Shown here: piece after piece, positions 36,507 through 49,574 of the stretch
Layout of the letters: every line of letters begins with the position of its first letter
Numbering within the stretch: position 1 is the first letter of the stretch
Assembly: GCA_000092065.1 (NCBI GenBank)
Contig: CP000588.1
Origin: Ostreococcus lucimarinus
Lineage: Eukaryota
DNA length: 64,000 bases
Strand: one strand, 5' to 3'
Position numbers and translations under genes: made by a program
The notes under the pieces: model-generated
What the model saw: the letters and a program-made list of their open reading frames with translations, nothing else
Databases searched by the model: none
Told to the model about the DNA's origin: nothing

Positions 36507-38195
36507 ATGAAGGAGGCGGCGAAGCGCGCGAAAACGACGGCGATGAAGGCGGCGAGACGACCGAGGAGCGCGGCGCGGGCGATGGCGGTGGCGGCGACGA
36601 TGGGGGGGGAGGGAGGGGGGGGGACGGAGCTGCGGGCGTTCGTGGCGGCGTGCGCGAACGCGCTGGGGCGAAGGGACGAGGACGTGGGGGCGAGGATCGC
36701 GGCGACGCTGGAGGCGAATTGGTTCACGACGCCGATGGATTTGGCGAGATTGAGCGTGGAGGAGGCGCGAGCGATGGCGGTGCCGATGAAACTGGTGGAT
36801 GAGTTTAAGCGCGCGCTGGACGGCGCGCGCGGGTTCGCGGCGAGCGGCGCGAGCGCGACGACGACGACGACGGAGAAAAACGACGAGGGAGAAACGGCGC
36901 TCGATTTAGGACTCGAGCCGTTGGCGTCGGAGACGGCGGCGACTACGATGAAGACGATGGTGTCGTCGAGCGGACGCATGGCGTTGAAGATGCGCACCGG
37001 TTTATCCGCCGAGTCGACGCGAGTGACGAGTCGACCTGTCGGATTACCGAATTATCGCATACCGTTGGAGGAATGCGGAAGCGATTTGAAGAAACAGTTC
37101 AAGGCTTTGCGCAAATTCCTTACCGTCCGTAGGCTTGGGCCTCAAGAATGCATTCTCGCTGGGGTGACGGCGGAAAAGTACGAAGACGTTTTGCGAGGCG
37201 CCTTGGGATGGTTGTGCGCGGAGAAAAACATGAAACCTTCGAAAGTCACGCTCCTCGACTTATTCCCGAGTATTGACGCGGAGAGTGCCAATGGAGCTTT
37301 TGAATACGTCACTTGGCTGAACGATGAGCGACAGACGTCGGCAAATTACGAGCTTCTCGTCACTCGCTCGTGCATCGCGGCGGTGAAATTCTTGTACGGC
37401 AATTTGAGCAAGGCGCAACCGGGCGAGGGCGAAGCGAAACCGTACCATGACTTGCCGGTGATGAAAGAATTACGTCGTATGGCGAAAGACGCTAAAGCTC
37501 GATCAGCCAAGGCGCCTAGCGTGAGCGATGAGCGTCTGAAATGGCTCGAATGGGATGAGTACTTGACGCTCGTGCAACGATTGAAGAGCGAGTGCACGGC
37601 GAAGAATTGTCTGGGACAATCTCGCTCGGCGAGCGCCGTGGCGTGGAGTGTGCAGAAGTATTTAATTTTTGGCGTTCTGTCGTGTGTGCCCGATCGTCAG
37701 CGAACTCTACGCGAGCTACGAGTCGGGAAGACGCTGTTCAAAGAGGGCGATAAGTGGGTCATTCGCCACAAAGAAACCGATTATAAAACGGGCAAGGACT
37801 ACGGGGTGCGACCACCGCTCGTAATCGCTCCGCATCTATATCCGACGCTCGAGACATTCATCGAAACGCACCGCAAAGAGCTCAATCCGAACCACGATTT
37901 CCTTTTCACTCGCAAGAATGGTGAGCAGTTTGACGGACAGGGGATTTATCGGCTCTTTACGACGACGGCGATGCGTCTCACCGGCAAGCGGACGAACCCG
38001 CACTTGATTCGAGACATGGTGGTGACGCACTTACGAGGGACGGACGCGTCCGAGCGACAGTTAGAGGCGCTAGCAATCTATATGGGTCACTCACTTCAGA
38101 TGCAAAAGTCGACGTACGACAGACGATCTGTCGAGCAAAAAGTTGCGCCGGCGGTGGATCTGTTAGATTCGCTCAACGCAAAGATGAGACTCTAG
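36507..38195 (+). CDS. Tyrosine-recombinase domain protein (phage-integrase/Crypton-like). C-terminal core-binding and catalytic domains with a low-complexity N-terminal extension.
   Basis: The C-terminal ~200 aa carry the canonical order of YR active-site elements: Arg (VPDRQRTLRELR), Lys in a beta-hairpin (HKETDYKTGKDYGVRPPLV), HxxR (NPHLIRDMVVTHLR, nt ~38001), His (AIYMGHS) and the nucleophile Tyr (QKSTYD, nt 38115). An upstream SAM-like core-binding segment is present (KALRKFL...AEKYEDVLRGALGWL). Confidence 0.6.
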   Translation: MKEAAKRAKTTAMKAARRPRSAARAMAVAATMGGEGGGGTELRAFVAACANALGRRDEDVGARIAATLEANWFTTPMDLARLSVEEARAMAVPMKLVDEFKRALDGARGFAASGASATTTTTEKNDEGETALDLGLEPLASETAATTMKTMVSSSGRMALKMRTGLSAESTRVTSRPVGLPNYRIPLEECGSDLKKQFKALRKFLTVRRLGPQECILAGVTAEKYEDVLRGALGWLCAEKNMKPSKVTLLDLFPSIDAESANGAFEYVTWLNDERQTSANYELLVTRSCIAAVKFLYGNLSKAQPGEGEAKPYHDLPVMKELRRMAKDAKARSAKAPSVSDERLKWLEWDEYLTLVQRLKSECTAKNCLGQSRSASAVAWSVQKYLIFGVLSCVPDRQRTLRELRVGKTLFKEGDKWVIRHKETDYKTGKDYGVRPPLVIAPHLYPTLETFIETHRKELNPNHDFLFTRKNGEQFDGQGIYRLFTTTAMRLTGKRTNPHLIRDMVVTHLRGTDASERQLEALAIYMGHSLQMQKSTYDRRSVEQKVAPAVDLLDSLNAKMRL

Positions 38196-40342: not shown

Positions 40343-42568
40343 CTATGGGAAGTATCGCGTCGGCGTGGGTTTGGGTTTGGCCGGCGCTTGTTTGCTCTTC
40401 GGCGTCCACTCGCATGCGCTCGGCTCTGCCGCGTGCGCCTTCTTCTTTCCACCGGGCTTCCACTCGCACGCGGATCCCTGTGCGACGGCTCCATGCGCCG
40501 CCTTATGCTCGGCACGGTGCTTGATCTGCGTCTCGAGTGCCACACGGACGTTTTCATCCAAAACATGAGCCATTTTGCACATCTTCAGGAGCTCGTACGG
40601 TTCATCTTCAATCGGTCGATCGCGGTCCGCCGCAACCACGCATATGAAACCAAAAGGCTCCGTCGTGCCTGCCTTGCACCGAAGCTGGTGCGTATCACCC
40701 GGTGCGGTATACCCGACGTCACCCACCCCAAGATGGTAAGACTCCAGACCGAGCTGGATTTCGCCTTCCCCTCGAAGCACTACGACGACGTGTTCGTGTT
40801 GGTGGTGCTCGAGCGTCGTCCATCCACCCGGGGCAACTTCAAAGTAACGCACGTGGAAAACTGGACTCTCTCCTCGCTTTCCGATGAGTTCGATGCGTGA
40901 ACACTCCTTGAAACTCGCCCCATCCATCTTGTACATTTCCTGCGGTACGCGCTCCCACTGAAACTCTCCCTTCTTTCTATTGAGTACCTTGCTATGATTT
41001 CCGTCTAGCGGCCCCTCAGACGCGTGTTTAGTTCCATTTCTCTTCGCCTCGGCGTCCATCAGGCTCTTCACGAGCGTCGTCAGCTCGTCAACCTTAGACT
41101 CGAGCGCATAATTCTTCTCTTTAAGCGCGCTCATTTGAGCAACGGCTTCAGGGTCAAGGCCCACCGTCCACGGCGTCGACGGCGGCGCAGCCGGATACGT
41201 GCCGTGCGGAGTCAGAGGGTATGGGCTATGTGCACTCGAACTCTCGTCTACGAGTTTCAATCTGGGTCGCATGCCGCTTCCCGGGGTGAAAAGTCCGTTG
41301 CTGTAGTGCGTTGGCACGTGATAGCTGCCAGGTTGTGATTCTCGAGGCCCGTAGATGTCGGTGCGACCCGCCATAGTCAGGATGTGCCTCGCATTCGCCG
41401 TCAAGTCCGAGCTATGGCTGTATAGTGATCCACCGACGAGGAGTAAAACATCTTGACCGTACGTCTCCATCATCACTTTAACCTTGTCGAGCGTCATGCC
41501 GCCGCCCGGACTCGGTAAGATTGACGGGTGGTGCGCCAAGACTCGCCTGGCACCGTGAACAATGTCTTTGCACTCTTCAACACTGAAGCCAAACCGCCCG
41601 CCAAAGTTTGGGAAAATAGTCGCATCTGCACCAGCCAATCGCGGTAGCAACCCGAGCAGGACGCCATGAGCAAATCCGCGAATGGTGTTTTGGCTTCCGC
41701 CGCCGAGCATGGCGCCGAGAATAGCGGGGTGCGCGATGATGGGAAGCCCAAAATCGGGATCTTCTGCCAGCGCTCGCATGCTATCCAAACCCGTGATTCC
41801 TGGAATCATCAACACCGCCCCAGCACCCGCGGCCTTGGCGAACTTGGCGCGCTGTACGACCAAGTGCGCCGGAGCGTTGATGCACGGCGCGTAGATGCAC
41901 CGCCGTCCCGTCTCCGCGTTCGCCCGTTTCACCGCCGCCGCACACGCCCGCACGCGCTCCTCATACGGGGCGTACCGTTGATTCGCCAATCCATGATCAT
42001 CCTTTATGATGTCAATTCCCCCCTTCGCGAACGCGTACGCCATTTCCGCAAGTTTCTCGCTCGGCGTCCCCATCGGCTTGAGCGCCGTCATCACAATGGG
42101 TCCGCGTTCGACCCCGAGCAATTTCCTCAGCCCCTTCGCCCCGAACCTCGCTCCCGCGAACTTCCCTAGCATCGCATCCGAAAGTTCCACGTCTCGCACC
42201 ATCACCCGTTCCTTTATGCTCGTGTTCCCGAAGATGACGTTCACCAGCTGCGGCAACTCGCCGCCCGCGCAGTCGTCGGCGTACCGCACCTTGGCCCTGT
42301 ACACGTCCCCACTCGCGCCTTTCCCGCGCGCGTCCACCCCCGAAGCGCACCGCTCGATCGACACGCATTTTCCCACGACGTGCTCGTTGATCCACGTCCC
42401 CGGCGGGACGAGCGCTTCGGGTAACTCGACGGTTTGCTCGAGACACAGCGCGTCGACGATCTGTCGCGCCTCCGCGTTCGACGTCGCGTCGACGTCGTAC
42501 GTGACGTGAAAGCACGACGACGCGCCGTCGCGCGTTAACGAAGGCGTCGCCGGGGCGTCGCGTGGCAT
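40343..42568 (-). CDS. RuBisCO-like protein (form IV RLP large-subunit fold) fused to a C-terminal cupin domain, 741 aa.
   Basis: The N-terminal ~400 aa are collinear with RuBisCO large subunit/RLP (GTWINEH, KPMGTPSEKLAEMAYAFAKGGIDIIKDDHGLANQ, a Gly-rich loop). The C-terminal ~250 aa contain a cupin-type His cluster (PGGWTTLEHHQHEHVVVVLRGEGE...GDTHQ), preceded by a coiled-coil and Pro-rich linker. Confidence 0.65.
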   Translation of the reverse strand: MPRDAPATPSLTRDGASSCFHVTYDVDATSNAEARQIVDALCLEQTVELPEALVPPGTWINEHVVGKCVSIERCASGVDARGKGASGDVYRAKVRYADDCAGGELPQLVNVIFGNTSIKERVMVRDVELSDAMLGKFAGARFGAKGLRKLLGVERGPIVMTALKPMGTPSEKLAEMAYAFAKGGIDIIKDDHGLANQRYAPYEERVRACAAAVKRANAETGRRCIYAPCINAPAHLVVQRAKFAKAAGAGAVLMIPGITGLDSMRALAEDPDFGLPIIAHPAILGAMLGGGSQNTIRGFAHGVLLGLLPRLAGADATIFPNFGGRFGFSVEECKDIVHGARRVLAHHPSILPSPGGGMTLDKVKVMMETYGQDVLLLVGGSLYSHSSDLTANARHILTMAGRTDIYGPRESQPGSYHVPTHYSNGLFTPGSGMRPRLKLVDESSSAHSPYPLTPHGTYPAAPPSTPWTVGLDPEAVAQMSALKEKNYALESKVDELTTLVKSLMDAEAKRNGTKHASEGPLDGNHSKVLNRKKGEFQWERVPQEMYKMDGASFKECSRIELIGKRGESPVFHVRYFEVAPGGWTTLEHHQHEHVVVVLRGEGEIQLGLESYHLGVGDVGYTAPGDTHQLRCKAGTTEPFGFICVVAADRDRPIEDEPYELLKMCKMAHVLDENVRVALETQIKHRAEHKAAHGAVAQGSACEWKPGGKKKAHAAEPSACEWTPKSKQAPAKPKPTPTRYFP

Positions 42569-43931: not shown

Positions 43932-45356
43932 ATGTCCGACTTTGGGACGGAAGAGCTAAGTGCCCGCGGCGTTTGCGCGCAAGCTCGGCCGTTCTCGTAC
44001 TTCGACGCGTTCGTGAAGACGTTCAGCGACGCGTACGACCGCGAAAGTAACCCAGACGGTTACATAAACCTTGCCGTGGCACAAAACAACTTGACGGTTG
44101 ATTTGTTGCACGACAGATTTAATGACGCCCTCAAAGAGCTTTCACCGTCGACGACGGCGCAGTACGACGACATGAAAGGTAGCCACGCGATGCGATGCGC
44201 GATGGCGAGACACATGACCCGCAGGGTCGTCGCGGACGACTCCGTGGAAGCAGTGCGCGCGGAAGATTTGGTGCTGTCGAGCGGTGCGGGGGCGGTCATT
44301 GAAAATTTGGTGTTTTGCGTGTGCAATGAGGGCGATGGCGTGTTCATTCCGTCACCGTACTACCCCGCGTTTCCGAACGATTTGCGGGCACGATTAGGGG
44401 TGCAAACGGTGCCTGTGAGCTCGACTCGGTCGAGTGCGTCGCGCGGACAAGTTTGCTTGCCACAGGTTGGCGCGGATTATGACCAGGCCGCGCGCGGACA
44501 AGTTTGCTTGCCACAGGTTGGCGCGGATTATGACCAGGCCGCGCGCCGGCGAAATATCGAGGAGCGAAAGGATCTACATATGAAGATGATTTTGTTGTCG
44601 AATCCGAGCAATCCGCAGGGGATTATTTACTCGAGAGAGGACATGGAAGAGACCATTGTGTGGGCGGTGTCGCAGAAACTCCACGTCATTTCCGATGAAA
44701 TTTATGCGTGTTCAATCTTTGGCGAAGGAGGGCACGCCTTTGTGAGCGCGATCAGCATCGTGGAAAAACTGATCAAGGACGCACTCGATCGCGGTGACGC
44801 AGAATTCGCGCAAAATTGCAGGGATTACGTGCATGTTGTATACGGAATGTCCAAAGATTTCTGCGCAAGTGGTTACCGAGTCGGCGCGCTTTGGACTCAA
44901 AACGCCGGCATCCACAGAGCTTTGGATAATGTATCTTATTTTTGCGCAATTCCTGGACCAATGCAGCACGCTCTTGCGATCGTGCTCAATGACGACGAAT
45001 TTCTCGACGGTTTCTTTGAGGAGAATCGTAAGAGGCTGCGCAAGCAATACGCCACGGTGGCGGAGAGGATCGATGCCTCAGTCATCGAAATCGTCCCTAC
45101 TAGCGGCATGTTCGTGTACTTTAACCTTCGAAAATACTTACCAGAGATACAGCCCACGTACGAGGACGAGCACAGGCTCTGGAATCATATATATACCGAG
45201 GCCAAAGTGGTGCTCACTCCTGGCAAAGACTGCGCGAGCGATGAGCCGGGATGGTTCCGAATGTGCTTCGCCGCCGTCCCCGAACACACCTTGCGTCAGG
45301 CCATCGAACGCATCCGCGCTGCATTTGAGACCATACGCGATTCTTCTAGATGTTAA
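43932..45356 (+). CDS. ACC-synthase-like class I/II PLP aminotransferase.
   Basis: NPSNPQG and the YGMSKDF(C)ASGYRVG PLP-Lys region, collinear with ACS/aminotransferase fold type I. Contains the 51-bp duplication listed separately. Confidence 0.75.
   Translation: MSDFGTEELSARGVCAQARPFSYFDAFVKTFSDAYDRESNPDGYINLAVAQNNLTVDLLHDRFNDALKELSPSTTAQYDDMKGSHAMRCAMARHMTRRVVADDSVEAVRAEDLVLSSGAGAVIENLVFCVCNEGDGVFIPSPYYPAFPNDLRARLGVQTVPVSSTRSSASRGQVCLPQVGADYDQAARGQVCLPQVGADYDQAARRRNIEERKDLHMKMILLSNPSNPQGIIYSREDMEETIVWAVSQKLHVISDEIYACSIFGEGGHAFVSAISIVEKLIKDALDRGDAEFAQNCRDYVHVVYGMSKDFCASGYRVGALWTQNAGIHRALDNVSYFCAIPGPMQHALAIVLNDDEFLDGFFEENRKRLRKQYATVAERIDASVIEIVPTSGMFVYFNLRKYLPEIQPTYEDEHRLWNHIYTEAKVVLTPGKDCASDEPGWFRMCFAAVPEHTLRQAIERIRAAFETIRDSSRC
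44442..44543. repeat. Perfect 51-bp x2 tandem duplication inside the aminotransferase CDS.
   Basis: cgcggacaagtttgcttgccacaggttggcgcggattatgaccaggccgcg occurs twice back to back. It encodes RGQVCLPQVGADYDQAA twice, in frame. Confidence 0.9.
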
Positions 45357-45398: not shown

Positions 45399-48300
45399 TT
45401 GACGCCAACGCTCCTTTGTAGATGTCCCAATTGCCCTGCGGCGCGAACGCCACAGCATCGCGCGTCGATGTTAGTAACCGATCTCGCGTTCGCTCGTACG
45501 TCTCAAACGATGCATCACAACCGTCATCGCGCGCGATCCGGACGCTCGACGCGCTCAACGACGACGAATCGCGCGCGAACGCGCACGACGGTCCGGTCGG
45601 CGGCTCGAGCGCATTATCAAGACGGCGACGCGCACGCGGCGTCGCAGGAGGGTTACTACAGGTTCCCGGTGATCCGTGGTAACGAGTTGTTCTTCGTGTG
45701 CGAAGACGACGTGTACGCGACCACGATCTCGGGGCTCGATAAACGCGAGAGCGGCGCGGAGACGACGCCGCCGCGACGGCTGACGCAGGCGCACGGCGCG
45801 GTGCAGCGGTTAGTCGTCTCTCCCGATGGATCACGCGTCGCGTTCGCGTGCGCAGAGGATGGATACACCGAAATATACGTCGTGGACGCGCGTGGAGGTC
45901 CTATGAAACAGTTGACACACATGGGGGCTTCGTACGCGCGGGCGTGCTGCTTTTCAGAGGATGGTCGACGGGTGTACTTTACGTCGAGCGGGGCGACGGC
46001 GGAACCGAATGGAGACGAGCTTTGGGTGGTGGACTGCGATGGTGGAGCGCCAATGAGAATGAACCTCGGTCCAGTGCATGATTTCGACGTGCGCAACGTG
46101 AACGGGAAAGAATTGGTTGTCCTCGGTCGTAATACTGAAGACACGGCGACGAAACACTGGGACGGATACGCGGGCGGCGCCGGTGGAGAGATTTGGTATG
46201 GGACCTTAGATAATTTGCTGCGACTTGACTTGCGTCTTCCAAACGAGCGTTTGTTGCGAAATGTTGGCAACGTGTCGTGGTTTGACGACGAGCACGTCGC
46301 GTTCACGGAAGCGGGCGGGCGTTCGACAGCGTTCAAGGCTAAAATTGATACCAATGAATTCAACACTCGCATCGTAGATTGTCAAGGATTCAGTGACTCC
46401 ACAGCAGACAACGAAGACATTAAGTACTTTCCCGTGCGTCATCTGAGCATTGATGTCAGTAGGCAAAGAATCGTGTACACCAGAGGCGGGGATGTATTCG
46501 TGGCAGAAGTTGTAGGTGGCGAACATAAGTCACCTATAAGGTTGCCTATTGAGTGGCGTGGACCTCGTACACAGCTTGCAAAACGATTTGTTCACGCGGA
46601 TGATTGGATCGAAGACTGGGATTTACACCCAGAAGGCTTGACGATGATGGTTCTTGTTCGCGGCCAACCGTTCACGATGGGCATCTGGGATGGACCGGTG
46701 TTGAGTTATCCGCCAGCGACGAAACTGCGATCACCCCAAAGCTCAGTGATAGCACCACTGGCGTCTCTTGCACAAAAGAGTCAAGCGCGTGTCCGGCATG
46801 GGGCTTACTTGTACGACGGTGAACGTCTCGTTTTTGTATCGGACGCCAGTGGTGAGGAGGACATTGAAGTGCATTGGGAAGAAGCTGAGCGACCGGCAAA
46901 ACGATTAGGATTGCATCACGAGTTGCTTGGAAGAGTAGAACGCCTGATACCTAGTCCAGAGGCGCCATTGGTGGCGATCGTGAACCACAGAAACTCACTG
47001 TTGATAGTCAACGTTGAAACTGGGGAAATGCGAACGGCTGACACGTCGAGTGAAGTGGACGGAATCGACGATTTGACGTGGAGTCCTTGCGGGAATTGGC
47101 TCGCTTACACGTACTACTTAAACAACGAAAGATCCTGTATTCGCATTCTCGATGTTCGGAACGGAAAGGTGTTCGATGCCACAAACCCTGTGCTCGGAGA
47201 TCACTCACCTGCGTGGGATCCCGACGGCAAATATCTGTACTTTTTAGGATCTCGAGAACTCGAACCGGTGTACGATGCCGCCACGTTTGGCTTAAATTTT
47301 CCAACTGTTGAACGCCCTCATTTGATCATACTGCAAAAGGATTTACGTAATCCACTTCTCAAGGAGCTCAGACCGCCGTACGATACGGAATCGTCGTCTG
47401 GCTCTGACTATGACTCTGAAACAGATAGTGATGTGGGAAGAAAGATGGATAAACGAGGCAATGGAAGGGACTACATGCCTCGCAAGAAGCCAGTTGTGGA
47501 TAAGGATGATGATGGCAGCGACTGGTCAACTGTGGATGGAGACAGTGATGACCAAATCTTGTCGAGCGGCGACGAGGATGACGATTACGAATCAGACGCG
47601 TCATATTACCATGAAGACGCGCCCCCTGCGATTGAGATTCACATCGATGGCTTGACAGAAAGGGTAGTTGCGCTCCCAATGCCGATATCACGTTATGATT
47701 GCCTTTGCGGTCTTGAAGACGGACGATTTATGGTTGTTGAATACCCTCCGAGTCGCGGCTCTCCCGGAAGCGTTGGTTTGGACTACTCGTCCGATGAAGA
47801 TGATGACGGTTTGGGTTCCCTTATTTCTTACAGTATCCGAGATTTGCGTCGAAGTATCTTAATACACGGTGGCGTGAGCGAAGTGTCACTGTCGATGGAT
47901 CGCAAATGCATGGTTGTGGAAAAAGAGTCGGATGGATTCCTAGAGCTTCGCGTTTACAAAGCTGGCGTGCGGCCGGAGGAAGAAGGGAGCGACAGCGAAG
48001 AATTGGATCAAATGCGGTGCGATCGTAGGACTGGCTTGGTGAATCTAGATGGTCGCATTCGTGTACTAGTTGATCCTGCGAGAGAGTGGGCACAGATGCT
48101 CGGGGAAGTGTATCGTCGTCTTCGCGACGACCTCTGGACTGAGAAAATTTGGAATGAAACGATTGGCGATGACTGGGAAGTCATGTTTGAGGAGTATGTG
48201 AAAGTGCTTCCAAAAGTGAGTACGCGGACCGAGTTTGGGGATTTATTGCGTGAAATTGCCGCTGGCGTTTGTTACTCGCACGTGGCTATCACGTCTGGTG

Positions 48301-49574
48301 ATCCTGGACGCTCCCATCGCAGACACTCTGCTGGGTATCTCGGCGCTGACTTCACTTGGGACGGCAAAGTCGGCGGTTATCGCATCTTGAACATCGTGAA
48401 GGGTGACATATGGGACGACATGCGAGGTGGTGTGCTCAGCAAACCGGGCGTCAATATCCACGAGGGTGACATACTTCTCTCGATCGATAGAGTACCGCTC
48501 ACCGAAGATGTTCCGCCGGCTGCGTTGTTGATTGAGAAGGGTGGCGTTGAAGTTCTGTTGACGGTCAAAATTGATAGCGACGGCAAAGGTGGTATTGACG
48601 AAGCGCTCGACAGACTCATGCTGAAAAAACAAAAGAACAAGAAAAAGGACAAGAGAGATGACAACGCACCGAAGAAAGGTGATGTCATCCCGGTGCGTGT
48701 CCGAGCCATGCACTCTGAAATCGATGCGAGGTATCGCGATATGATTCAGAAGCGCACGGAGCGAGTCCACAGCCTGAGCGATGGCGTCGTCGGCTACTTG
48801 CACATTCCAGACATGGAAAGCACAGGGTACTCCGAATTTTGGCGTCACTATGCGTCTGAAGTTCGCAAGGGAAGCTTGATTCTCGACTTGCGAGGTAACA
48901 CAGGCGGACACATTAGTGAATTGTTGCTCGCTAAGCTCTCGCAGCGCGCATTGGCTTGGGACATCCCGCGACGCGGCGAGGTGCAAGTTTATCCATCCAA
49001 CACGCCTGGCCCGCTCGTGATGCTGGTCGATCAACGCACAGGCTCTGATGCTGAGCTCATGGCGGAATCTTTCAGAAAACTAGGTTTAGGACGAGTCGTT
49101 GGGATGCGCACTTGGGGTGGTTTGCTCGCCATCAACGGCGTCGCCGAACTCATCGATGGGTCCGAGTTGAGTTTGCCTTCACAAAATGTGCTCCTTGTCG
49201 ACGAGGCGAAGGGCGTAGACGCGAGATCCGACGCGACACAAGCGTACACGAACGCGGTGGAAAACCGCGGCGTCATTCCGGACGTCACAGTTGACATATC
49301 TCCCGCTGAATATTCTCGCCGCGAGGACCCGCAGCTCGACACCGCCGTGCGCGAGGCGTTGCAGTTACTCAAAGACACCGGCGCCGCCGGCGTCGCGACC
49401 TACCTTCGCAAGATCCGCGAGGACGAGACAACGGCCGCTGAATTAGAACGCAAACTGACGCGCAAACCTTGGTCGTTTTCCACGTGGGCGCCGCTTCCGC
49501 CGACCAAGGAGGAAGAAGAGAAGCAACTTCGAGCCAAGCGCCGCGCCGGGCGAAATAATATCCCGCGCCCGTGA
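45399..49574 (+). CDS. Tricorn protease homolog (beta-propellers, PDZ and S41-like catalytic domain) with a eukaryote-type acidic insertion.
   Basis: N-terminal YYRFPVIRGNELFFVCEDDVY corresponds to tricorn LLRFPDIHGDKIVFVAEDDLW. The C-terminal block VVGYLHIPDMESTGYSEFWRH...GNTGGHISELL...TGSDAELMAESFRKLGLGRVVGMRTWGGLL matches TIGYIHIPDMGMMGLNEFYR...GGGFVSQLI...[30 protein letters not shown], including catalytic Ser. An inserted Asp/Ser-rich tract lies at ~47390-47640. Confidence 0.8.
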   Translation: MTPTLLCRCPNCPAARTPQHRASMLVTDLAFARTSQTMHHNRHRARSGRSTRSTTTNRARTRTTVRSAARAHYQDGDAHAASQEGYYRFPVIRGNELFFVCEDDVYATTISGLDKRESGAETTPPRRLTQAHGAVQRLVVSPDGSRVAFACAEDGYTEIYVVDARGGPMKQLTHMGASYARACCFSEDGRRVYFTSSGATAEPNGDELWVVDCDGGAPMRMNLGPVHDFDVRNVNGKELVVLGRNTEDTATKHWDGYAGGAGGEIWYGTLDNLLRLDLRLPNERLLRNVGNVSWFDDEHVAFTEAGGRSTAFKAKIDTNEFNTRIVDCQGFSDSTADNEDIKYFPVRHLSIDVSRQRIVYTRGGDVFVAEVVGGEHKSPIRLPIEWRGPRTQLAKRFVHADDWIEDWDLHPEGLTMMVLVRGQPFTMGIWDGPVLSYPPATKLRSPQSSVIAPLASLAQKSQARVRHGAYLYDGERLVFVSDASGEEDIEVHWEEAERPAKRLGLHHELLGRVERLIPSPEAPLVAIVNHRNSLLIVNVETGEMRTADTSSEVDGIDDLTWSPCGNWLAYTYYLNNERSCIRILDVRNGKVFDATNPVLGDHSPAWDPDGKYLYFLGSRELEPVYDAATFGLNFPTVERPHLIILQKDLRNPLLKELRPPYDTESSSGSDYDSETDSDVGRKMDKRGNGRDYMPRKKPVVDKDDDGSDWSTVDGDSDDQILSSGDEDDDYESDASYYHEDAPPAIEIHIDGLTERVVALPMPISRYDCLCGLEDGRFMVVEYPPSRGSPGSVGLDYSSDEDDDGLGSLISYSIRDLRRSILIHGGVSEVSLSMDRKCMVVEKESDGFLELRVYKAGVRPEEEGSDSEELDQMRCDRRTGLVNLDGRIRVLVDPAREWAQMLGEVYRRLRDDLWTEKIWNETIGDDWEVMFEEYVKVLPKVSTRTEFGDLLREIAAGVCYSHVAITSGDPGRSHRRHSAGYLGADFTWDGKVGGYRILNIVKGDIWDDMRGGVLSKPGVNIHEGDILLSIDRVPLTEDVPPAALLIEKGGVEVLLTVKIDSDGKGGIDEALDRLMLKKQKNKKKDKRDDNAPKKGDVIPVRVRAMHSEIDARYRDMIQKRTERVHSLSDGVVGYLHIPDMESTGYSEFWRHYASEVRKGSLILDLRGNTGGHISELLLAKLSQRALAWDIPRRGEVQVYPSNTPGPLVMLVDQRTGSDAELMAESFRKLGLGRVVGMRTWGGLLAINGVAELIDGSELSLPSQNVLLVDEAKGVDARSDATQAYTNAVENRGVIPDVTVDISPAEYSRREDPQLDTAVREALQLLKDTGAAGVATYLRKIREDETTAAELERKLTRKPWSFSTWAPLPPTKEEEEKQLRAKRRAGRNNIPRP

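Follow-up and report, generated by a model that had tools for sequence, protein, structure and literature searches.

We report a full-length tricorn protease gene in the nuclear genome of the alga Ostreococcus lucimarinus, located in a 64,000-nucleotide stretch of contig CP000588.1 (GenBank assembly GCA_000092065.1) that is referred to here, in its whole length, as the window. The encoded protein truly belongs to the tricorn protease family (MEROPS S41B), and its gene is an intact eukaryotic nuclear gene that is under purifying selection and is not a contaminant. It belongs to a single clade of 15 'long-form' lineages, from Ostreococcus and from marine eukaryotes of high GC content. We consider it likely that the gene specifies a functional enzyme and that the clade descends from one transfer out of a bacterium, after which a basic N-terminal extension, disordered inserts and a conserved C-terminal tail were gained. 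The monophyletic long-form clade, its disordered inserts, the extension in most of its members and the conserved tail are the new elements of this work.

The gene was singled out in an earlier note, made from the letters of the window alone, as an open reading frame (ORF) of 1391 amino acids (aa) at 45399..49574 on the + strand. The ORF is present as described there, though its likely start has to be moved, since the in-frame TTG at 45399 is a purely mechanical ORF start upstream of the first ATG and an unlikely start codon. That ATG lies at 45468, 111 bp past the TAA of an upstream aminotransferase gene, and the stop codon is the TGA at 49572-49574, giving a product of 1368 aa. A public protein, P0001, matches this product with 100% identity and is encoded on many marine metagenome and genome contigs. 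The motifs quoted in the note, RFPVIRGNELFFVCEDDVY, TGSDAELMAESF and HIPDM...GNTGGH, are all found in the ORF. The coordinates of the gene and its features are collected in Table 1.

The protein contains the five tricorn domains in order: a 6-bladed propeller, a 7-bladed propeller, the C1 domain, a PDZ domain and the S41 catalytic domain. Pfam matches above the curated cut-offs are found (Table 1), and the precomputed Pfam annotation of the identical protein P0001 lists PF26549 (Tricorn_N) and PF26550 (Tricorn_2nd). The best solved structures by sequence are those of the Thermoplasma acidophilum tricorn, 1k32 and 1n6d (phmmer E=2.4e-67), to which the algal protein aligns in five collinear stretches spanning both propellers, C1/PDZ and the catalytic C2 domain. 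The full-length tricorn homology proposed for the ORF is thereby borne out.

The predicted fold leads to the same family. The structure was predicted as two overlapping halves, aa 55-880 and aa 850-1368, from an alignment of 59 sequences. For the N-terminal half (AlphaFold; predicted local distance difference test, pLDDT, 81.9) the best match is 1k32_A, with E=5e-37 and a template modelling (TM) score of 0.67, while other double-propeller proteins reach a TM score of 0.28 or less. The strand list of this model, from which the blade count was estimated without three-dimensional inspection, is compatible with six plus seven four-stranded blades, and in the model the second propeller is broken by two disordered acidic loops. 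For the C-terminal half (pLDDT 82.8) the best match is again 1k32_A (E=4.3e-31, root-mean-square deviation 3.2 Å, 444 columns), and the next matches in the PDB, which are CtpA, CtpB, Prc and the D1 protease, follow at E ~1e-15 or weaker with deviations above 12 Å. The domain order is thus identical to that of the Thermoplasma enzyme (1k32, 1n6d/e/f) and both modelled halves superpose on 1k32, although identity in the structural alignments is only 18-27% and the algal protein is about 300 residues longer. The additional residues include the basic extension, two acidic loops, a Lys-rich insert and the tail.

An ordinary S41 protease of the CtpA type that merely resembles tricorn would share some of these features. 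The C-terminal processing proteases CtpA, Prc and D1 (S41A) have the S41 catalytic domain in common with the algal tricorn, and also a PDZ domain, which in the CtpA/Prc models is nested in the S41 domain; weak, sub-threshold NCBIfam matches hint at a likeness to CtpA and TolB. However, those proteases possess neither propellers nor C1 and are ~400-680 aa long, and both modelled halves of the algal protein match tricorn in particular. The NCBIfam scores also fall far below their cut-offs: the CtpA, CtpB, CtpC, CtpZ and prc models give 21-33 bits where 218-665 are required, and the TolB model TIGR02800 gives 63 bits against 343, the match being local and confined to a few PD40 blades. TolB matches in the PDB reach E ~1e-7 over ~100 aa. 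The best matches are double-propeller tricorns, and not the TolB-like or other S41 proteins without tricorn propellers that the earlier note had held up as the counter-case.

The catalytic residues, whose positions the note had proposed to check by alignment, are all retained. Thermoplasma positions were mapped through the phmmer alignment, with the 1k32 numbering shifted by +26 to full-length numbering and the targets numbered on the 1368-aa protein. Ser965 corresponds to Ser1193, Asp966 to Asp1194, His746 to His938, Ser745 to Ser937, Glu1023 to Glu1265 and Gly918 to Gly1147, and each of these counterparts is conserved. In an alignment of 26 sequences the residues S937/H938, G1146/G1147, S1193/D1194 and E1265 do not vary; among 197 family members they are conserved in 182-195, and the six mapped positions in 182-192. 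With the catalytic tetrad intact, and with purifying selection acting on the gene, the reading of the protein as an inactive pseudo-protease finds no footing. In tricorn, the basic pair Arg131/Arg132 anchors the substrate C-terminus and is associated with carboxypeptidase-type specificity. Arg158, which aligns with the first member of the pair, is invariant in eight eukaryotic sequences, and the same position is occupied by Arg in 57 of the 197 family members; Arg132 has no counterpart in the algal protein.

Composition offers the one argument for a foreign or misassembled sequence. The GC content of the tricorn gene is 0.542 and that of its third codon positions (GC3) is 0.574, which is below the mean of 0.659 for 27 long ORFs of the window (standard deviation 0.063). 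Yet the value lies inside the range of these ORFs (0.52-0.75), so that the 'host-like' GC content attributed to the gene holds in the sense of that range, with the reservation that it sits at the low end. The setting of the gene is eukaryotic throughout: close to the eukaryotic-type neighbour upstream, it is flanked by genes for Dcp2, LSm and TCP-1, and the neighbours encoded in the window include a Dcp2+NUDIX protein, an LSm protein, a TCP-1 chaperonin, ArgJ and a UVB_sens protein, among others. The window ArgJ shares a 90% cluster with A4S1K1 of O. lucimarinus CCE9901. The order Dcp2, aminotransferase, tricorn, LSm, ArgJ, UVB_sens, AKR recurs on three independent contigs that carry the identical protein, and the same order from Dcp2 to AKR is found on one contig from a lineage that is 72% identical, which answers the question of synteny in sister genomes raised by the note.

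The gene is also transcribed in a sister species, and it is under selection. In O. mediterraneus, MMETSP transcripts of the ortholog cover the whole protein with its N-terminal extension, its two inserts and its tail; none of these parts is an unspliced intron. Comparison with the syntenic ortholog gives a proportion of nonsynonymous differences (pN) of 0.17 and of synonymous differences (pS) of 0.75; since the synonymous sites are saturated, we give pN and pS and the ratio of nonsynonymous to synonymous rates (dN/dS) for single domains, and no whole-gene value. In the S41 domain dN/dS is ~0.095, and in the N-terminal extension, where few codons can be aligned, it is ~0.8. Because of the eukaryotic neighbours, the synteny in the sister lineage, the O. 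mediterraneus transcripts and the purifying selection, we conclude, as the note had expected, that the gene is not a contaminant. With the arrangement repeated in independent metagenome contigs as well, contamination or misassembly joins the pseudo-protease and the CtpA-type protein as readings that the gathered evidence refutes and to which we attach practically no credence.

The note had started from the premise that tricorn is characteristic of archaea and a few bacteria, and this premise is outdated. In a scan of prokaryotes with one genome per species, 599 of the 600 matches listed were confirmed as relatives, so that the family is present in at least 599 species-representative genomes and in more than 12 bacterial phyla. 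The bacterial carriers include Chloroflexota, Cyanobacteria, Melainabacteria, Eremiobacterota, Armatimonadota, Planctomycetota, Actinomycetota, Pseudomonadota, Bacteroidota, Acidobacteriota and others. The closest relatives of the algal protein outside its own clade are bacterial proteins labelled 'tricorn protease' or 'S41 family peptidase' (including those of Streptomyces), with 30-35% identity over ~90% of the length and E ~1e-160 to 1e-180; the best prokaryotic matches come from Caldilinea, Anaerolineae, Poribacteria and Ktedonobacteria (~32% identity, E ~1e-180 to 1e-160). Like the algal protein, these bacterial homologs open the first propeller with GYYRFP and retain every catalytic position. 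They are, in contrast, only ~1070-1100 aa long and have neither the extension nor the acidic and Lys-rich inserts; in most of them the protein ends in an RP...LP.LP tail.

Among eukaryotes, the homology searches recovered six Ostreococcus lineages, at 66-74% identity, and nine further long-form proteins of 1264-1610 aa, at 37-48% identity, all from marine or environmental assemblies. The O. tauri protein OUS47013.1 / A0A1Y5IFZ4 is a 70%-identical ortholog in which the inserts, the tail and the N-terminal extension all recur. The 15 long-form lineages form one clade. In bootstrapped neighbour-joining trees, built from ~1000 trimmed columns with corrected p-distances, the long-form clade is monophyletic with support of 75-79% when 8-10 members are included and of 100% with all 15 lineages. 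Five of the nine distant genes, on contigs of 66-72% GC, adjoin eukaryotic genes, namely those for SMC2, an RHD3/Sey1 GTPase and a calmodulin-type EF-hand fusion; the neighbouring SMC2 matches its family at E=2e-132, as against 1e-15 for bacterial Smc. The succession SMC, GT2 and/or methyltransferase, tricorn is common to several of the distant loci. The neighbourhood of P0386 contains only Acyl_transf_3 and is uninformative as to its host. Two of the distant proteins, P0007 and P0008, were considered as possible bacterial donors in view of contigs of 70-72% GC and were ruled out, their neighbours being eukaryotic (SMC2 and the calmodulin-type EF-hand fusion). Four environmental eukaryotic contigs, L006, L087, L088 and L089 (66-70% GC), have in common a neighbourhood of RHD3/Sey1 GTPase, SMC2, GT2, UbiE-like methyltransferase, tricorn and a leucine-rich repeat protein, which differs from that of Ostreococcus.

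As to the origin of the gene, the earlier note had allowed either an ancient horizontal acquisition or retention in this algal lineage. The first of these is favoured, since the closest relatives are bacterial, and the second is disfavoured. Vertical retention of a relict tricorn from an archaeal-type ancestor of eukaryotes might be suggested by the fact that tricorn was first described in archaea, and Cavalier-Smith (PMC1586193) placed tricorn in the prokaryote cenancestor, while arguing that it was lost in the ancestral eukaryote. The bacterial homologs are nevertheless much closer, scoring ~580 bits at 30-35% identity where the Thermoplasma tricorn scores 230 bits; no archaeon occurs among the best 80 of at least 600 species-representative matches; and the spread of the gene among eukaryotes, as recovered by our homology searches, is extremely narrow. 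We therefore regard retention as very improbable.

A more specific route would be endosymbiotic transfer from the cyanobacterial ancestor of the plastid, followed by loss from most Archaeplastida. Full-length cyanobacterial homologs of ~31% identity do exist in Elainellaceae (E=1e-158), Leptolyngbya and Oscillatoria, an extension resembling a transit peptide would suit a plastid-derived protein, and the neighbour-joining trees leave the deep placement of the clade open. A grouping of the eukaryotes with cyanobacteria, on the other hand, receives no meaningful bootstrap support, and by minimum mean distance to ten eukaryote-labelled sequences the Cyanobacteria rank only eighth of 12 bacterial groups, with Chloroflexota, Planctomycetota, Actinomycetota and others nearer. 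Nor did the homology searches recover a named homolog from a plant, streptophyte, red alga or other chlorophyte, so that a cyanobacterial origin would need very many independent losses. It seems to us an unlikely origin, if less so than archaeal-type retention. The most parsimonious account is that a bacterial tricorn gene was transferred once into an algal ancestor; both the direction of the transfer and its single occurrence are what we infer from these comparisons.

Several observations weigh against the likely history and function that we propose. In the tree the clade joins long-branched sequences of Actinomycetota, Bacteroidota and Acidobacteriota (80% with 15 lineages), a placement that is probably due to long-branch attraction, because the raw distances place Chloroflexota, by a small margin, nearest to the clade. 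The bootstrapped neighbour-joining analyses, which are not maximum likelihood, gave no settled bacterial sister group or donor. The homology searches recovered no named eukaryote beyond Ostreococcus, in a word-index search whose 8000 scored candidates could leave out remote homologs from other eukaryotes. In the substrate-anchoring pair, Thermoplasma Arg132 falls in an alignment gap in the algal protein, at a position that is poorly conserved across the family. Finally, the gene model of P0008 has no N-terminal extension, so that targeting may not be universal in the clade.

The N-terminal extension was thought in the earlier note to be basic and to suggest organelle targeting. It comprises the 60 residues ahead of GYYRFP and is indeed basic: its first 50 residues have a net charge of +10, the highest of the 27 window ORFs, with 15 Ser/Thr and a single Asp/Glu. 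In composition it resembles the N-termini of ArgJ and of a VIPP1-like protein, both plastid-type neighbours in the window. The extension is present in five of the six Ostreococcus models and in P0241 and P0311, and in P0004 and P0007 if an upstream in-frame ATG is used; its sequence is poorly conserved, and it is absent from the bacterial homologs. It would have been gained after the transfer and is probably an organellar targeting peptide. From its composition and its recurrence in most members of the clade, we judge the balance to tip towards targeting of the protein to an organelle, either plastid or mitochondrion.

A competing view, to which we give a substantial though minority weight, is that the enzyme is a cytosolic tricorn acting downstream of the 26S proteasome, beside or in place of TPPII, and that the extension is no more than a disordered appendage. 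The protein contains other low-complexity inserts that are clearly not targeting signals, P0008 lacks the extension in its gene model, and the extension evolves as loosely as its dN/dS, on few alignable codons, would indicate. Moreover, the closest bacterial homologs begin at GYYRFP with no signal peptide and are thus cytosolic-type proteins. Against this, the internal inserts are acidic or Lys-rich and unlike the extension in composition, which is strongly basic and hydroxylated in the manner of the ArgJ and VIPP1-like N-termini, and extensions of like character recur in most clade members despite their divergence, as is typical of the evolution of transit peptides. A fuller version of the organellar proposal, in which a bacterial peptidase has been retargeted to the plastid or mitochondrion in Ostreococcus and related picoeukaryotes and its loops and tail serve regulation or assembly, is possible, and we hold it slightly less probable than the cytosolic view. 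If it were true, the enzyme would remove the oligopeptides that Clp, FtsH or Lon set free, and the acidic loops and the invariant tail could be new regulatory or assembly elements. In plants, such oligopeptide clearance is carried out by PreP and OOP.

The remaining additions to the bacterial plan are the disordered acidic and Lys-rich inserts and the tail with its W-x-F-x-x-W-A-P motif, which would likewise have been gained after the transfer. The Asp/Ser-rich insertion, placed at ~47390-47640 by the note, was found at 47376-47621 and contains 22 Asp and 13 Ser in 82 residues. In all six Ostreococcus lineages it keeps the reading frame and has conserved flanks, while in the more distant P0007 and P0008 it is shorter, and its identity to the syntenic ortholog is 52%, compared with 82-85% in the flanking domains; the inserts as a whole, at 52-58% aa identity, evolve faster than the adjacent domains. 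The possibility that the acidic insert is an unspliced in-frame intron was excluded, as the frame is kept in every ortholog and the transcript-derived protein P0169 contains the insert, which confirms it as coding sequence. On our own reading of the sequence, the abundant S-x-x-D/E sites in the acidic loops are candidate targets of CK2. The Lys-rich insert occurs in the eukaryotic clade and again in P0169. A 12-bp tandem repeat, AAAAGGACAAGA x2 at 48631-48654 (+), underlies this low-complexity insert and suggests that it grows by replication slippage.

In the C-terminal tail the motif KPWSFSTWAPLPP, of the W-x-F-x-x-W-A-P type, is encoded at 49464-49502 (+); with pLDDT <50 it is not confidently placed in the monomer model. 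Its W, F, A and P are invariant in eight eukaryotic sequences. Wherever the C-terminus of a clade member is intact the motif is there, as KPWSF.TWAPLPP in Ostreococcus and as SW[SP]FR.FAPYP or RTWAPFE in the others. None of 13 bacterial C-termini that were inspected has it, and most of them end in the short RP...LP.LP tail. The inserts and the tail may have a role in the eukaryotic proteins.

Table 1. Position of the tricorn gene, its domains and its principal residues in the window
Feature	Position	Strand	Remarks
Tricorn-family protease coding sequence, intronless	45468..49574	+	1368 codons plus TGA; collinear over its full length with bacterial and archaeal tricorn
N-terminal extension, aa 1-60	45468..45647	+	Arg/Ser/Thr/Ala-rich, nearly no acidic residues; candidate organellar transit peptide
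First beta-propeller, ~aa 62-354	45651..46529	+	equivalent to tricorn 6-bladed propeller; Tricorn_N; ~22-24 strands in model
Arg158	45939..45941	+	aligned with Thermoplasma Arg131 (substrate C-terminus anchor); phmmer alignment
Second beta-propeller, ~aa 373-831	46584..47960	+	equivalent to 7-bladed propeller; Tricorn_2nd; ~27-28 strands
Acidic Asp/Ser-rich insert, aa 637-718	47376..47621	+	second-propeller loop; predicted disordered, pLDDT <50
Second short acidic loop, aa 763-779, ...DYSSDEDD	47754..47804	+	pLDDT <50 at model residues 709-725; conserved in Ostreococcus lineages
C1 helical domain	48075..48260	+	Pfam Tricorn_C1 E=2.7e-13, 50 bits vs cut-off 24; helices in model
Ser937-His938 (CYSHV)	48276..48281	+	equivalent to Thermoplasma Ser745-His746, catalytic His and partner Ser; Ser 186/197, His 192/197
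Tricorn-type PDZ domain	48333..48578	+	Pfam PDZ_Tricorn E=2.1e-19, 69.8 bits vs cut-off 25
Lys-rich insert, aa 1036-1070, ...LKKQKNKKKDKRDD...	48573..48677	+	between PDZ and catalytic domains; low confidence, pLDDT 60-73
S41 catalytic core (C2)	48789..49208	+	Pfam Peptidase_S41 E=6.2e-21; holds oxyanion Gly pair and nucleophile Ser
Oxyanion Gly1146-Gly1147	48903-48908	+	Gly1147 aligns with Thermoplasma Gly918
Nucleophile Ser1193-Asp1194 (TGSDAE)	49044-49049	+	Ser 191/197
Glu1265	49260..49262	+	equivalent to Thermoplasma Glu1023, fourth tetrad member; Glu 192/197
C-terminal tail, aa 1301-1368	49368..49571	+	specific to eukaryotic clade; motif, then acidic stretch, then basic stretch

By homology with the Thermoplasma enzyme, the algal protein should be a serine peptidase. 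Oligopeptides would enter through the propeller channels and reach the buried Ser-His-Ser-Glu site, and short peptides, which are di- to tetrapeptides in the case of the Thermoplasma enzyme, would be released. The algal enzyme is probably a large oligomer working downstream of ATP-dependent proteases; its activity, substrate range and oligomeric state are thus presumed from the family, and its organellar location from the extension. In Thermoplasma, tricorn is a 720-kDa homohexamer that assembles into an icosahedral capsid and cooperates with the aminopeptidases F1, F2 and F3. No genes for the interacting factors F1, F2 and F3 were seen in the 64-kb window, where linkage is not expected. TPPII, which acts after the proteasome in eukaryotes, is a very large self-compartmentalising peptidase with the same proposed role as tricorn, the trimming of oligopeptides produced by ATP-dependent proteases, but its fold and catalytic type are unrelated (subtilisin-like S8 as opposed to S41) and it has no sequence or structural similarity to the algal protein. 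The tricorn mechanism is also outlined in PMC12502532.

The existing record of the gene consists of labels. The O. tauri ortholog (OUS47013.1 / A0A1Y5IFZ4) was deposited as 'tricorn protease' by automated annotation, an older O. tauri model (XP_003080833.1 / Q013C9) is labelled 'Quinonprotein alcohol dehydrogenase-like superfamily', and the Joint Genome Institute (JGI) labels metagenomic copies of the P0001 cluster 'tricorn protease(-like)'. Within the library of papers searched, no study deals with a full-length tricorn from an alga or any other eukaryote, and no functional or evolutionary work on the O. tauri protein came up. A protein of Aspergillus with a 'tricorn N-terminal domain' (PMC12502532) was considered and set aside, being a 42-kDa, propeller-only protein and not a tricorn protease.

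In the scheme of Cavalier-Smith (2006; PMC1586193) tricorn was lost in the ancestral eukaryote and TPP is its eukaryote-restricted counterpart. The algal tricorn is a clear, conserved and expressed exception to the textbook view that the enzyme was lost at the origin of eukaryotes and gave way to TPPII, and it is found in one of the smallest free-living eukaryotes. The gene adds to the bacterial genes that have become fixed in picoeukaryote genomes. Earlier reports describe bacterial genes acquired by Mamiellophyceae. Since O. tauri is transformable and has an ortholog, it is a tractable organism for finding out what role a tricorn-type peptidase plays in eukaryotic cells or their organelles. 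The practical importance is modest, as both the family and its chemistry are familiar, automated labels exist and similar acquisitions are known.

Three other ORFs of the window drew our attention. The aminotransferase ORF upstream of the tricorn gene (43932-45356) contains, at 44440-44546 (+), a perfect in-frame tandem duplication of 51 bp (2.1 copies, 100% identity) that repeats the 17 aa 'RGQVCLPQVGADYDQAA'. The duplication is either strain-specific or an assembly artefact, because copies of the aminotransferase in metagenomes are 457 aa long and that of the window 474 aa, a difference of exactly 17 aa. At 36507-38195 (+) there is an ORF of 562 aa with a weak Phage_integrase match (E=6.5e-6, 26.5 bits, below the Pfam cut-off of 27.1), which is also called on related metagenome contigs at 577-679 aa and could be a domesticated or mobile-element recombinase of the tyrosine type. 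Lastly, a 741-aa protein encoded at 40343-42568 (-) and conserved on related contigs joins a RuBisCO large-subunit catalytic domain (E=1e-22) to a C-terminal Cupin_2 domain; it is RuBisCO-like and not the plastid-encoded enzyme, and represents an unusual nuclear-encoded fusion.

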